In this document: piece by piece, positions 1,506 through 18,567 of the stretch
Position numbering within the stretch: position 1 is the first letter of the stretch
Layout: every line of letters begins with the position of its first letter
Origin: Shigella phage ESH35
Strand: one strand, 5' to 3'
Sequence record: ON528745
DNA length: 64,000 bases
Translations under genes and position numbers: made by a program
Notes under the pieces: model-generated
Told to the model about the DNA's origin: nothing
Seen by the model: the letters and a program-made list of their open reading frames with translations, nothing else
The model's database searches: none

Positions 1506-1531
1506 GGGGACCCTAGAGGTCCCCTTTTTTA
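1506..1531 (+). terminator. Rho-independent terminator after gene 32
   Basis: GGGGACC-CTAGA-GGTCCCC followed by TTTTTT. Confidence 0.75.
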
Positions 1532-1556
1532 TTTCAAAAAATTTTTTCACAAAACG

Positions 1557-1586
1557 GTTTACATCCTTGTCCTTCCATGGTACTAT
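1557..1586 (+). promoter_or_regulatory. T4 early-type sigma70 promoter
   Basis: GTTTACA -35, 17-nt spacer, TACTAT -10. Confidence 0.6.
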
Positions 1587-1629: not shown

Positions 1630-1860
1630 ATGGCTAAAGTTGATATTGACATCGTTGATTTTGAATATATTGAAGAGATTATTCGTAATCGTTATCCTGA
1701 ACTTAGTATCACAAGTATTCATGATGATCCCAATTATTGCAATTTTTCTATTGTCATTGAAGGTCCTCTTGAAGACCTTACCCGCTTTATGGCTAATGAA
1801 TATTGCGATGGCATGGATTCTGAAGACGCAGAATTTTACATGGGACTGATTGAACAATAA
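1630..1860 (+). CDS. Hypothetical small protein (76 aa)
   Basis: ATG at 1630 preceded by AGAGGA; the longer ORF-track start at 1504 would span a terminator and promoter. Confidence 0.55.
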
Positions 1861-1906
1861 TTATCAAGGGGCTATTTGATAGCCCCGTTAAAATGAGGAA
1901 ATCAAA

Positions 1907-2293
1907 GTGGAAGTTGGAAAAACTTATATCATTAACCCTTTATTTAAAAATGACTTTGCTAACGAGTGCCGTTGCAATGTAATGATGCTAAATTTAATAG
2001 AGAAGCACGGACCTAGTTTTGTTGTAGATGAAATGGAAAGTGATGATTGTGCTGGTGAATGTGTGGTACGTGTAACTATGGAAGATGGTACTGAATACAT
2101 GGCGGGTGGCCCACTTGAGACGTATTTTGAGATTTACTCTGAAGAATTCAAATACTTTACTGAGGTAACTTTAGAAAAGCCTCAATCCGCTAATGAAGGT
2201 ATAGTTTCTGGCGTAACAAAAATTCACTGCATTGTTGACGAAAACAATGTAGATGAAATCATTGAACTTTTGCGAAAAACTTTCAAAAAGTAG
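1907..2293 (+). CDS. Hypothetical protein (128 aa), paralog of the 2352-2726 ORF
   Basis: GTG start 6 nt after GAGGA; shares GKxY...HGxSFxVxxM...DGT...YFE pattern with the next ORF. Confidence 0.55.
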   Translation: MEVGKTYIINPLFKNDFANECRCNVMMLNLIEKHGPSFVVDEMESDDCAGECVVRVTMEDGTEYMAGGPLETYFEIYSEEFKYFTEVTLEKPQSANEGIVSGVTKIHCIVDENNVDEIIELLRKTFKK

Positions 2294-2322
2294 TTTACAA
2301 CGGGCTATGGTAATGATACTAT
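2293..2322 (+). promoter_or_regulatory. T4 early-type sigma70 promoter
   Basis: GTTTACA, 17-nt spacer, TACTAT; spacer contains inverted repeat GGCTAT...ATAGCC. Confidence 0.6.
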
Positions 2323-2351
2323 AGCCTTATCAACTACATGAGGAAATTAAA

Positions 2352-2726
2352 ATGATGGAAACTGGTAAATTTTACGTATTAGACCCTGCTGCAAAAAAAC
2401 GATTCATCGCTGGTAATCCTGATGCTAATTCGTGCATGGTCAAGTTGATGGAACAACATGGCAGTTCCTTCAAAGTCCTGGATATGTGTTATATTGAAGG
2501 TGATTATTTTGTTGAAAAAGTTGAAATGAAAGATGGCACCATCCTGAATAGTATGAGTGATGATGAGTACTTTGAACTCGCTGAATGGGAATTCTGTCAC
2601 TTCCTGGAAGTTGATAGCGATGCTTCTGATGATGTTGATGATACTCAAACCATTCATGTACAGGTAAATCATAAAAATGCGGCAGAAGTCATTGCACTGA
2701 TTAAAGCAACTTTTGATATTCAGTAA
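2352..2726 (+). CDS. Hypothetical protein (124 aa), paralog of the 1907-2293 ORF
   Basis: ATG after GAGGA; own early-type promoter upstream; acidic C-terminal half. Confidence 0.6.
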   Translation: MMETGKFYVLDPAAKKRFIAGNPDANSCMVKLMEQHGSSFKVLDMCYIEGDYFVEKVEMKDGTILNSMSDDEYFELAEWEFCHFLEVDSDASDDVDDTQTIHVQVNHKNAAEVIALIKATFDIQ

Positions 2727-2732
2727 AAAGTA

Positions 2733-2762
2733 GTGTACAACTAAATGGGGCTATGATATAAT
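2733..2762 (+). promoter_or_regulatory. T4 early-type sigma70 promoter
   Basis: GTGTACA, 17-nt spacer, TATAAT. Confidence 0.6.
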
Positions 2763-2799
2763 GGTCCCATACTGAGTTACCAAATAACTGGAGAATAAA

Positions 2800-3042
2800 A
2801 TGAGATTACAACGTCAGAGCATCAAAGATTCAGAAGTTAGAGGTAAATGGTATTTTAATATCATCGGTAAAGATTCTGAGCTCGTTGAAAAAGCTGAACA
2901 TCTTTTACGTGATATGGGGTGGGAAGATGAATGCGATGGATGTCCTCTTTATGAAGATGGAGAAAGCGCAGGATTCTGGATTTATCATTCTGACGTCGAT
3001 CAGTTTAAAACTGATTGGAAAATTGTGAAAAAGTCTGTTTGA
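2800..3042 (+). CDS. Hypothetical small protein (80 aa)
   Basis: ORF with RBS GGAG upstream; downstream of an early-type promoter. Confidence 0.55.
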   Translation: MRLQRQSIKDSEVRGKWYFNIIGKDSELVEKAEHLLRDMGWEDECDGCPLYEDGESAGFWIYHSDVDQFKTDWKIVKKSV

Positions 3043-3052
3043 GGAAAATATT

Positions 3053-3408
3053 ATGTCTGACATTCGTGTAGCTGGAATTGCTCGAGTAAGTATTCGTTGC
3101 CAACTTAAAACTGCGCCCGGGACGGCTTATATTAATTTATCACACGACCTATGTTCTAGTGAAAGACCATTAACTGGTGTAATTACGTTTTACGCTGGAG
3201 TTGGCGGAAACGAATTTACTGTAGGCGAATTTGTTGGTTGTAAATTAAAAGTTCAGAAGAATGTGTTAGAACTTTTTAGCGATCTTTATGGTGATAGTGA
3301 TGAAGTTTTTGATGAAATCGCGCAAGCAGTTAACAGAGGAATGGTAACTTTAGTTAAAATGATTAAAGATAGCGGATTTGCTTCTGGCCCCTTTCAGTGG
3401 GAGGTAAT

Positions 3409-3412
<4 letters not shown>
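3053..3412 (+). CDS. Hypothetical protein (119 aa)
   Basis: ORF tightly packed after the previous gene with GAGGA RBS. Confidence 0.55.
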
Positions 3413-4235
<823 letters not shown>

Positions 4236-4254: not shown

Positions 4255-4602
4255 ATGAATTTTAATTATTACCCTATTCTATTAGAAAAAGATGAGAAAC
4301 AGCCAAAGTGGCAGGGTCCTCAGTTTATTAAAGGTGTCTATCAATTAGTAGTTCCTAAAGACAAGATTTATAGCAGTTGTTTCACTGAATCCGCTTGTAG
4401 TATTTTCGGTAATAGTTCTCCGTATTGGAATTTTGACATAAAGCTGGATAGAAATATCGATATTTGGTTGAAAGCTATGGATATTGGTAATATCACGTTT
4501 GATGAGAATAATTATCATATTATTGGTCGCTTTTCCAAACGCGGTAAAGAATTATATTTCACGCCTGAAATTGAGAGAAAATTTGATGCTAAACCGTATT
4601 GA
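4255..4602 (+). CDS. Hypothetical protein (115 aa) in an insertion between frd and td
   Basis: ORF with upstream GGCGGAAAT-ATG; no family recognised; lies inside a 416-bp segment flanked by duplicated TAAATGAAA. Confidence 0.55.
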   Translation: MNFNYYPILLEKDEKQPKWQGPQFIKGVYQLVVPKDKIYSSCFTESACSIFGNSSPYWNFDIKLDRNIDIWLKAMDIGNITFDENNYHIIGRFSKRGKELYFTPEIERKFDAKPY

Positions 4603-4647: not shown

Positions 4648-5508
4648 ATGAAACAATACCAAGATTTAATTAAAGACATTTTTGAAAATGGCTATGAAAC
4701 CGATGACCGAACGGGCACAGGAACAATTGCTTTGTTCGGTACTAAATTGCGTTGGGATTTAACCAAAGGTTTTCCTGCAGTAACAACTAAAAAGCTCGCC
4801 TGGAATGCATGCATTGCTGAGCTAATATGGTTTTTATCAGGAAGCACAAATGTCAATGATTTGCGATTAATTCAACATGATTCATTAATTCAAGGCAAAA
4901 CAGTCTGGGATGAAAATTACGAAAATCAAGCAAAAGATTTAGGATACCATAGCGGTGAACTTGGTCCAATTTATGGAAAACAGTGGCGTGATTTTGGCGG
5001 TGTAGATCAAATTATAGAAGTTATTGATCGTATTAAAAAACTGCCAAATGATAGGCGTCAAATTGTTTCTGCGTGGAATCCAGCTGAACTTAAATATATG
5101 GCATTACCGCCTTGTCATATGTTCTATCAGTTTAATGTGCGTAATGGATACCTTGACCTTCAGTGGTATCAACGTTCGGTAGATGTTTTCCTCGGTCTTC
5201 CATTTAATATTGCATCATATGCTACGTTAGTTCATATTGTAGCTAAGATGTGTAATCTTATTCCGGGAGATTTGATATTTTCTGGTGGTAATACTCATAT
5301 CTATATGAATCACGTAGAACAATGTAAAGAAATTTTATGTCGTGAACCTATGGATTTATGCGAATTACAATTAAAATTTCCAGATGAATTTGATGAATGG
5401 GACACAGAATCGCAGGTATTTTGGTTGAGTCAATTTGCAAAGCCTCATAATTTTGTTCTTAACAACTATGAATCACATCCTCCTATTAAAGGAAAGATGG
5501 CGGTGTAA
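4648..5508 (+). CDS. td: Thymidylate synthase, uninterrupted (no group I intron)
   Basis: 286-aa continuous [29 protein letters not shown]...[11 protein letters not shown]...PIKGKMAV; TS active-site Cys motif present. Confidence 0.95.
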
Positions 5509-18158: not shown

Positions 18159-18177
18159 CCAAAGATTGCATAAAGTT

Positions 18178-18207
18178 GTTTACAGTATGGTTCCTTTGTG
18201 ATAGTAT
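18178..18207 (+). promoter_or_regulatory. T4 early-type sigma70 promoter
   Basis: GTTTACA, 17-nt spacer, TAGTAT. Confidence 0.6.
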
Positions 18208-18234
18208 TATCTTACACAAACAAAGGAGAATAAA

Positions 18235-18567
18235 ATGAAAACGATTAATCTGAACGCTGCAGTTAAAGCTAAATGCTTCAATGGTGAATATAACGAAACT
18301 ATGTGGTTCTTAATGGCAGTTGAAGGTGATATTATTGAAGTAGAAACAACAGAAGGTATGGGAACAGATTTCACCTTTACAATTCAAGTTCATAATTTCT
18401 TTACTGGTTGGATTTATGAATTGAATACAGTAATCGTTGGAAAAATTGAACAAAATGAATTAGGTGAATGGTATTATGTTACAGCTCGCCAACGTGCCGA
18501 ACGCTTAATTGAGAAGATGAAAAAAGTCGGTAAGCTTGACATGAAGCACTGGAAAGTAGTAAAATAA
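18235..18567 (+). CDS. Hypothetical protein (110 aa)
   Basis: ORF with AAAGGAG RBS downstream of an early-type promoter. Confidence 0.55.
   Translation: MKTINLNAAVKAKCFNGEYNETMWFLMAVEGDIIEVETTEGMGTDFTFTIQVHNFFTGWIYELNTVIVGKIEQNELGEWYYVTARQRAERLIEKMKKVGKLDMKHWKVVK

Follow-up and report, generated by a model that had tools for sequence, protein, structure and literature searches.

Organization of the locus

In this study, we analyzed a stretch of 64,000 nucleotides from Shigella phage ESH35 (sequence record ON528745), called the window here and numbered from its first letter, with attention to two small plus-strand genes that stand side by side between gene 32 (575-1483) and frd (3654-4235), where a sequence-only reading of this DNA had placed them. 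We call them copy A (1907-2293) and copy B (2352-2726). Both belong to the family of the T4 gene frd.2, and we consider it highly probable that A is the resident gene, that B was imported from another genus by way of promoter cassettes, and that the expression and fold proposed below apply to them. The region belongs to the genus Tequatrovirus, its nearest relatives in megablast being RB51, SfPhi01 and similar phages, and by these matches the window is that of a T4-like coliphage with a backbone of RB51/SfPhi01 type. The features of the region are as follows (aa, amino acids; pI, isoelectric point; dG, folding free energy; dS, synonymous divergence).

Start of window: 3' end of gene 59
575-1483: gene 32
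1506-1534, plus strand: intrinsic terminator after gene 32, GGGGACC-loop-GGTCCCC then a T run (terminator scan)
1558-1586, plus strand: early-type promoter upstream of frd.3, TTTACA-N17-TACTAT (pattern scan)
1630-1860, plus strand: frd.3, 76 aa, Pfam PF05798 Phage_FRD3 (E 6e-38)
1868-1886, plus strand: hairpin between frd.3 and copy A, GGGGCTAT-TTG-ATAGCCCC, dG -13.6 kcal/mol
1907-2293, plus strand: copy A, resident frd.2 of RB51 type, GTG start, 128 aa, pI 4.45, FRD2 117 bits
1923-2203, plus strand: hypervariable segment in copy A, encoding the N-terminal domain (blastn segments)
2291-2354, plus strand: PeSL-type cassette between A and B (pattern scan, folding, junction alignment)
About 2336-2789 (~454 bp), plus strand: putative imported segment of Gaprivervirus/Dhakavirus type (junction alignments, blastn segments, dS contrast)
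2352-2726, plus strand: copy B, second Frd.2-family gene, ATG start, 124 aa, pI 4.34, FRD2 108.6 bits
About 2724-2802, plus strand: second PeSL-type cassette, of Gaprivervirus type (pattern scan, folding, junction alignment)
2800-3042, plus strand: frd.1, 80 aa, DUF5417 (Pfam), of Tequatrovirus type; the resident sequence resumes here
3053-3412, same strand: gene of a DUF7247 protein (Pfam)
3654-4235: frd (dihydrofolate reductase)
4648-5508: td, intron-less

One of the small open reading frames (ORFs) between gene 32 and frd has a PHROG match only. The DNA of frd.3 is 100% identical to that of RB51, and the record of phage fPS-90 carries an annotated terminator at the place homologous to 1506-1534. 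Copy B has a second ATG at 2355, which would give a product of 123 aa if used as the start.

Relationship of copies A and B

The sequence-only reading had reported a shared pattern in the two products, and this similarity was borne out. BLASTP over the whole length gave 34% identity over 130 columns (E 3e-14). The Smith-Waterman score was 140 versus 28.6 +/- 5.0 for 2000 shuffles of B (z = 22), and not one shuffle equalled it; chance or compositional similarity, by which the claim of the sequence-only reading would have fallen, is thereby ruled out. Both proteins match phrog_622 and Pfam PF03197 FRD2, the family of T4 gene frd.2 (bacteriophage Frd.2 protein), with whole-protein hidden Markov model (HMM) scores of 117 bits for A (E 6.6e-34) and 108.6 bits for B (E 2.7e-31) against a curated gathering threshold of 29 bits. 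They also share an early-region position between gene 32 and frd in the gene order of T4, RB51 and slur07. By these alignments, A and B are true, anciently diverged paralogues. Relatives occur in other phages, where the earlier reading had proposed to search for the family, namely T4 frd.2, the frd.2a/frd.2b genes of JS98 and SP18, and genes of DK-13, TH54 and RB51. A six-frame HMM search of the 64-kb window found no Frd.2 paralogue beyond A and B. One borderline ORF, 18235-18564, was rejected as a paralogue; it is gp30.8 (Pfam Phage_30_8).

A neighbour-joining tree of the N-terminal domains of 82 family members showed three deep clades: one of B, one of A together with Mosigvirus, and one of the T4 type with a subtype that we call K. 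In this tree, the B of the window is nested within the B clade of Dhakavirus and Gaprivervirus, and the A of the window lies in a separate clade with the frd.2 genes of RB51 and Mosigvirus. The N-terminal barrels of A, B and T4 Frd.2 are about equally distant from one another (32-39% identity), that of A being 32% identical to T4 Frd.2 and 38% to B.

Copy B and its surroundings

At the protein level, copy B is 93% identical to the second FRD2 gene of Gaprivervirus DK-13, 91% to SP18 'frd.2b' and 84% to 'frd.2a' of Dhakavirus JS98; its DNA is 92-94% identical to the frd.2a/frd.2b genes of these two genera. Tree and identities together place B in a deeply separate subfamily, whose members normally stand beside a T4-type frd.2 in Dhakavirus and Gaprivervirus. 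In blastn, the region fell into three segments, with 1401-2286 matching RB51 (99.3%), 2338-2715 matching DK-13 (93.4%) and 2790-3800 matching SfPhi01 (96.1%).

The junctions could be followed base by base. On the left, slur07 and the window agree in every base up to 2335, a stretch that takes in the end of A, the promoter, the hairpin and TTATCAACT, and the cassette to this point is identical to the one that precedes frd.1 in slur07; past 2335, the window continues like SP18 and JS98 (ACATGAGGAAATTAAAATGATGG...). On the right, sequence of TH54/SP18/DK-13 type extends to 2789 and includes the end of B (…ATFDIQ and stop) with the promoter cassette after it. Beginning with the shared GGAGAATAAAATGAG (2790-2804), frd.1 is 95.9% identical in nucleotides to slur07/SfPhi01 versus 76-79% to Gaprivervirus/Dhakavirus. 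The crossover zones are thus TATCAACT (2328-2335) on the left and the common ribosome-binding site (RBS) and start of frd.1, GGAGAATAAAATGAG, on the right. As read from these alignments, B entered the lineage on a segment of ~454 bp that holds the RBS, copy B and the downstream promoter cassette, its nearest sampled arrangement is that of Gaprivervirus TH54, and its edges lie in short sequences common to all cassettes of promoter, hairpin and Shine-Dalgarno (SD) sequence in the hyperplastic region.

We computed dS between the window and DK-13, TH54, SP18 and JS98, with the following results.

Copy B: dS 0.09-0.20
frd.3: dS 0.7-0.8
gp32: dS 1.4-1.6
frd.1: dS 1.1 to saturation
frd: dS 1.4 to saturation

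Within the same genome pairs, the value for B is at least 4-fold, and mostly more than 5-fold, below those of the flanking genes, which indicates that B crossed between genera long after the genera split. No sign of a local tandem duplication was found, considering that the nearest relatives of B are in other genera and that its dS stands against values from 0.7 to above 2.5 for the flanks.

The order of the genes after gene 32 differs among related phages.

T4: frd.3, frd.2, frd.1
slur07: frd.3, A, frd.1
RB51 and SfPhi01: frd.3, A, orf239c, frd.1
JS98: B, T4-type, orf232, frd.3, frd.1
SP18: T4-type, B, gp251, frd.1
DK-13: T4-type, frd.3, B, orf, frd.1
TH54: T4-type, frd.3, B, frd.1

Most Tequatroviruses are without B; the slot that it fills here has no annotated gene in T4 and slur07 and holds an unrelated ORF of 86 aa in RB51 and SfPhi01. 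B is common in Dhakavirus and Gaprivervirus and rare in Tequatrovirus, so that import into Tequatrovirus is the parsimonious direction. A match to B with at least 60% amino-acid identity is contained in 66 phage records. Of the 636 phage records with a match to 1861-2860, none reaches a coverage of 80%, and ECp13 alone carries B at this place. The arrangement frd.2-B-frd.1 was found in 10 contigs of public assemblies and metagenomes, in which the B ORF is intact and almost invariant. The left junction of 42 nt is identical in all eight of the other public contigs examined, which points to a single import event; the exact junction string gave no match in the viral contigs of IMG/VR. The frd.2 upstream of B has an N-terminal domain of K type in ECp13 and in two contigs (L010 and L013), and by this comparison the domain type of the upstream gene has since been replaced in some of the carriers. 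The B copy of ECp13 (L006, 556-900) encodes 114 aa, being shortened by a 1-nt deletion relative to the window (…GTTATTGC-TGATTAAAGC…), which is either a sequencing error or the mark of a pseudogene.

The 86-aa ORF of the slot was seen in RB51 (RB51ncORF239c; L002, 2295-2555), in JS98 (orf232; L004, 3261-3521) and at two further loci (L005, 2930-3184; L007, 2871-3125). In 5/5 phages examined, an FRD2 gene of one type or another stands before it, joined to it by the overlap TAATATG, and its protein is 97% identical between RB51 and JS98, though the gp32 of the window, 99% identical to that of RB51, is only ~65% identical to that of JS98. From this pattern, the ORF looks like another mobile cassette. 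A Foldseek match to an 85-aa VR25 protein had prompted the idea that RB51ncORF239c/JS98 orf232 is a tail-less relative of Frd.2; it was rejected, the family HMM giving 1.7 bits (E 0.07 among five sequences). In the T4 spacer between frd.2 and frd.1 (L003; about 146005-146142 of the record), an unannotated ORF of 22 codons follows the promoter cassette with its own GGAG RBS and encodes the hydrophobic peptide MFAPYIMAAVMLVCLYLLIKAC.

Promoter cassettes

The intergenic spacers of the region follow one plan, which consists of the upstream stop codon, (G)TTTACA, 17 nt, TAYWAT, TATCAACT, an SD sequence and ATG. Within this plan, an inverted repeat spans the 17-nt spacer and the -10 box. The cassettes on the two sides of B, both on the plus strand, have the following parts.

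2291-2354, boxes: TTTACA (2294-2299), N17 and TACTAT (2317-2322), directly after the stop codon of A
2291-2354, remainder: hairpin 2302-2327 over the -10 box, TATCAACT (2328-2335), SD GAGGA (2340-2344) and the ATG of B
2727-2799, downstream of B: TGTACA-N17-TATAAT (2734-2762), hairpin 2745-2770 and an SD now used by frd.1

Hairpin 2302-2327 has a dG of -14.7 kcal/mol (z -4.45; 0/200 shuffles as good), and hairpin 2745-2770 one of -18.4 kcal/mol (z -3.0). The strict promoter pattern has four matches in the 64-kb window, with 0.45 expected by chance, and three of the four lie here (1558-1586, 2294-2322 and 2734-2762). The annotators of phage fPS-90 also predicted early promoters at the homologous positions, before frd.3 and before the B slot. 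The claim of the sequence-only reading that B has an early promoter of its own therefore agrees with the pattern at 2294-2322 and with the fPS-90 annotation, the activity of this promoter being a prediction. There is no promoter between frd.3 and A, so copy A is probably driven by the frd.3 promoter (1558-1586).

Cassettes of this kind have been described as PeSL, in which a stop codon is combined with a sigma-70-like promoter, a stem-loop that lies between the promoter boxes or over them, and the SD and start codon of the gene that follows (PMC2839356; PMC4122927), with the consensus TTTACW-N17-TAYWAT in the T4/PST group (Arbiol et al. 2010, PMC2839356; Comeau et al. 2014, PMC4122927). They border genes that differ between close T4-type relatives, and it has been proposed that they drive modular shuffling by recombination (Arbiol et al., PMC2839356; Comeau et al., PMC4122927).

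Elsewhere in the window, the gp30.8 gene (18235-18564) is preceded at 18172-18237 by a terminator hairpin, GTTTACA, a spacer, a TAGTAT-like -10 box and GGAGAATAAAATG. This last element is identical to the RBS and start of frd.1, and the cassette type accordingly recurs outside the region.

Copy A

The protein of copy A is 98% identical to RB51 frd.2, and its gene of 387 bp has the length of T4 frd.2; on this comparison, A is the resident frd.2 of the phage. The GTG start after a hairpin, as described in the sequence-only reading, was found again. An SD sequence, GAGGA, lies at 1895-1899 with the GTG 7 nt after it, RB51 is annotated from the same GTG, T4, slur07 and SfPhi01 have ATG at that codon, and the nearly invariant family residues G4, K5, Y7 and P11 lie just downstream. 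Together, these observations support the GTG start. The hairpin (1868-1886) has a z of -2.5, with 4/200 shuffles folding equally well. It has neither a promoter nor a T run, and by lacking the latter it is not a canonical terminator. Its stem (GGGGCTAT…ATAGCCCC) is nearly that of the promoter-cassette hairpins (GGGCTATGG…ATAGCC) without the promoter boxes, and it may be the remnant of a promoter cassette.

The two parts of the protein are related to T4 Frd.2 very differently. Identity is 32% over the N-terminal 100 residues and complete (28/28) over the last 28. At the DNA level, 1923-2203 has no blastn-detectable similarity to T4 frd.2, and its flanks are each ~90% identical to T4. The reverse pattern appears between T4 Frd.2 and the first FRD2 gene of DK-13, with 89% in the N-terminal domain and 67% in the tail. 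From these opposite patterns, we conclude that barrel type and tail have different histories. A third N-terminal type, the K type of ECp13, L010 and L013, is carried on the same tail. Copy A is, by these alignments, a domain-level mosaic.

The ratio of nonsynonymous to synonymous divergence (dN/dS) was 0.12-0.35 for copy A against close relatives and 0.20-0.58 for copy B, both from small substitution counts, and these values suggest that both genes evolve under purifying selection. With their intact ORFs, a dN/dS below 1 and confident structure models, both genes look functional.

Predicted fold and breadth of the family

AlphaFold2 (AF2) models, built with an alignment of 63 sequences, had a mean predicted local distance difference test (pLDDT) score of 86.8 for A and 89.6 for B. 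Structure prediction, which the sequence-only reading had proposed as a check, gave both proteins the same order of elements: two helices follow the first strand, then come three strands and a short helix, and after one more strand a low-confidence linker leads to the terminal helix. In the model of B, the strands are at 7-10, 39-48, 51-59, 64-66 and 84-87, the low-confidence linker at 92-95 and the terminal helix at 107-121. In that of A, a predicted SH3/LSm-like N-terminal barrel (~1-88) is followed by a disordered linker (91-100) and a C-terminal strand-helix tail. Each protein is thus predicted to be an acidic molecule of ~14 kDa with a five-stranded barrel of SH3/Tudor/LSm type, a floppy linker and a short strand-helix tail. 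Both carry 25 D+E versus 10-12 K+R (pI 4.45 and 4.34).

In Foldseek searches against BFVD, other Frd.2 relatives came first, followed by GoF of phage VR7 (E 1.4e-5) and T4 MotB.1 (P39415; E 7.5e-4). With hhalign, the family profile aligned co-linearly with the single T4 sequences of GoF (E 0.057) and MotB.1 (E 0.037), which is not significant. Kim et al. 2025 placed Frd.2, GoF and MotB.1 in one group of early proteins whose N-terminal beta-barrel is SH3/LSm-like (PMC12152347), and our AF2 and Foldseek results independently reproduce this grouping. Judging from the model matches, the term SH3/Tudor-like small barrel fits better than LSm; Hfq and Sm proteins proper were not the closest structural neighbours.

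By sequence, no meaningful match to a solved structure was found, B having nothing below E 0.3. Ankyrin matches of A (E 0.001 and 0.017; residues 85-122) were rejected, being short and with no stretch that passes alone. An exhaustive profile search of 1.84 billion representatives returned 48 clusters only, nearly all of small phage-type proteins, and no distant relative of known function. The very long repetitive proteins P0099, P0109, P0114 and P0115 match one helix-strand motif only and were set aside as uninformative. In three more distant relatives (P0107, P0112 and P0113; 225-254 aa), a tandem fusion of two barrels precedes a single strand-helix tail. Barrel duplication has thus been repeated in this family, both within one gene and as separate genes.

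Neighbouring genes

An ORF between the DUF7247 gene and frd was listed from a GTG at 3397 (3397-3654, 85 aa). All its homologues are annotated as 81 aa (246-bp genes), and an ATG at 3409 is the probable start, which gives an overlap with the last bases of the DUF7247 gene. The td gene (4648-5508) is uninterrupted, the group I intron and I-TevI of T4 being absent. Between frd and td, where these two genes overlap in T4, the window has an ORF of 115 aa (4255-4602, RB32ORF229c-like), for which the RB51 record has the remark 'flanked by 9 bp repeat'. The gap between gene 59 and gene 32 (475-575) has no homing-endonuclease gene; one is present at this place in SfPhi01, SP18 and DK-13, as is SegG in T4.

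Discussion

We propose that B came to its present place through crossovers in which PeSL-type cassettes underwent homologous recombination. Since the import, copy B has had before it the promoter found ahead of frd.1 in slur07 and like relatives, and frd.1 the Gaprivervirus-type promoter that arrived with B. Transcription of both genes would depend on the host's sigma-70 RNA polymerase and fall in the first minutes after infection; for B, it would start at the gene's own promoter and also come from read-through.

The adjacency of A and B, on the same strand, homologous and of similar length, would also suit a tandem duplication of frd.2 in place within this lineage, followed by long divergence. 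The sequence-only reading had spoken of an old duplication with diversification; its ancient paralogy stands, but the tree, the dS values, the contents of the slot and the edges of the segment show that B arrived by recombination. The two copies share only 34-38% identity, whereas the DNA of B agrees at 92-94% with genes from other genera. Most close relatives are without B, the slot having no annotated gene in T4 and slur07 and an unrelated ORF in RB51 and SfPhi01. The N-terminal domain of A is equally remote from T4 Frd.2 (32%) and B (38%), the sequence changes at the segment edges from Tequatrovirus type to Gaprivervirus type, and the dS contrast between B and its flanking genes contradicts a local event. 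We therefore regard in-place duplication as extremely improbable. An ancestral pair of an A-like and a B-like gene, inherited vertically here and lost repeatedly in other Tequatroviruses, would agree with the age of the three N-terminal-domain clades and with the two FRD2 genes that are normal for genomes of Dhakavirus and Gaprivervirus. Such a history is nevertheless very improbable, considering that B has a dS of 0.09-0.20 to these genera, at least 4-fold below its flanking genes, that the cassette downstream of B is of Gaprivervirus type while frd.1 itself is of Tequatrovirus type, and that all sampled carriers have one identical left junction.

On the other hand, B may have been imported and yet be a functionless passenger, hitch-hiking DNA that decays in its new genome. 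The shortened B of ECp13 and the fact that T4 manages without a B gene are in line with this, but 10 other contigs carry the ORF intact and with hardly a change, its dN/dS is 0.2-0.58, it has a consensus promoter and SD before it and a confident predicted fold, and it is kept in many phages of other genera (66 records at the identity of at least 60% given above). We consider decay improbable, and return to an imported gene that is retained.

Regarding function, we tentatively suggest that each Frd.2 is a stoichiometric early binder that takes hold of a host or phage macromolecule with its variable barrel, the two barrels providing two specificities and the conserved tail a common role, for example dimerization or a shared partner; this is one possibility among several. 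A and B could instead be LSm/Hfq-like RNA chaperones that bind and stabilize particular mRNAs, as proposed for GoF/MotB.1/Frd.2. Kim et al. 2025 predicted an LSm-like fold (PMC12152347), GoF(D25Y) stabilizes an mRNA reporter (PMC12152347), and Foldseek ties B to GoF and MotB.1. Yet wild-type GoF and MotB.1 had no reporter effect and the paper gives no reporter result for Frd.2 (PMC12152347), both proteins are strongly acidic (25 D+E versus 10-12 K+R), and their structural neighbours do not favour an Hfq-like role; an RNA chaperone is thus somewhat unlikely. We found at least four deeply diverged N-terminal barrel types (A, B, T4 and K) exchanged between genera on a conserved tail and promoter cassettes. 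The barrels may be interchangeable specificity modules of an early host-targeting adaptor, A and B together broadening the hosts or defences handled, and the locus may record an arms race, a reading that we hold to be unlikely. By analogy, the adaptor could be a Tudor/SH3-like binder of the RNA polymerase beta-lobe, as are CarD, UvrD and Mfd, or a binder of a host defence or RNA-decay factor. In a CRISPRi-ART screen, frd.2 was the sole T4 gene of unknown function scored 'Fit' (PMC11879866), and if the barrels are indeed interchangeable, natural variants with the A, B, T4 and K barrels could serve directly as reagents in the search for its target.

Several points weigh against the account of a resident A and an imported, expressed and binding B. 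We infer promoter use and expression in this phage from sequence. The nearest sampled B genes still differ by ~6% in DNA, from which we take the true donor to be unsampled, and the direction of the transfer rests on the prevalence of B across genera. A T4 frd.2 amber mutant plates normally (PMC12152347), and the 'Fit' score of frd.2 is weak (0.83, p 0.027, versus 3.29 for gene 32). The strong acidity fits protein binding better than RNA binding, an argument from composition only.

In summary, the family and the rearrangement mechanism are known, and the arrangement at this locus is new. Tandem Frd.2 paralogues had already been annotated as frd.2a/frd.2b in JS98 and SP18, the identity with frd.2 having been missed in the sequence-only reading. 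The locus provides a base-resolved case of cassette shuffling in the hyperplastic region of T4-like phages and corrects the idea of a local duplication, while adding little alone. Its natural variation could be used to find the partner of Frd.2, including four N-terminal types on one tail, one-copy as well as two-copy genomes, double-domain fusions in distant relatives, and a recent cross-genus transfer of B that was kept intact.

Comparison with known systems

A and B resemble the GoF/MotB.1/Frd.2 group in having an N-terminal small barrel, a linker and a variable C-terminal part, and in being encoded by early genes of dispensable regions, although their sequence similarity to GoF and MotB.1 is not significant alone. 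FeoA and the Tudor/SH3-like domains by which CarD (N-terminal domain), UvrD/PcrA (C-terminal domain) and Mfd (RID) bind the beta subunit of RNA polymerase are 9-17% identical to Frd.2, with match scores typical for any small barrel, and Frd.2 differs from all of them by two helices inserted after strand 1.

The modules at 2291-2354 and about 2724-2802 match the published anatomy of PeSL, and both edges of the B segment, as well as the edges of the alternative occupant orf239c, fall in such modules. In contrast to the published systems, the cassettes of the window are known from their sequence, and their promoter and terminator activity is predicted.

Compared with T4, A shares with frd.2 the family, the neighbourhood 32/frd.3/frd.2/frd.1/frd, the length of 128 aa and the last 28 residues, but its N-terminal domain is 32% identical and unalignable in DNA, and T4 has a single frd.2 without a B-type gene. 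The closest parallel to the pair is found in JS98 (Dhakavirus) and SP18 (Gaprivervirus), where Frd.2 paralogues named frd.2a/frd.2b by their annotators stand side by side downstream of gene 32. There, the partner of B is a T4-type frd.2 and not the RB51-type A of the window, and the pair is usually followed by an extra ORF (orf232 or gp251). B itself comes first in JS98 and second in SP18, and in DK-13 and TH54 it stands behind an intervening frd.3.

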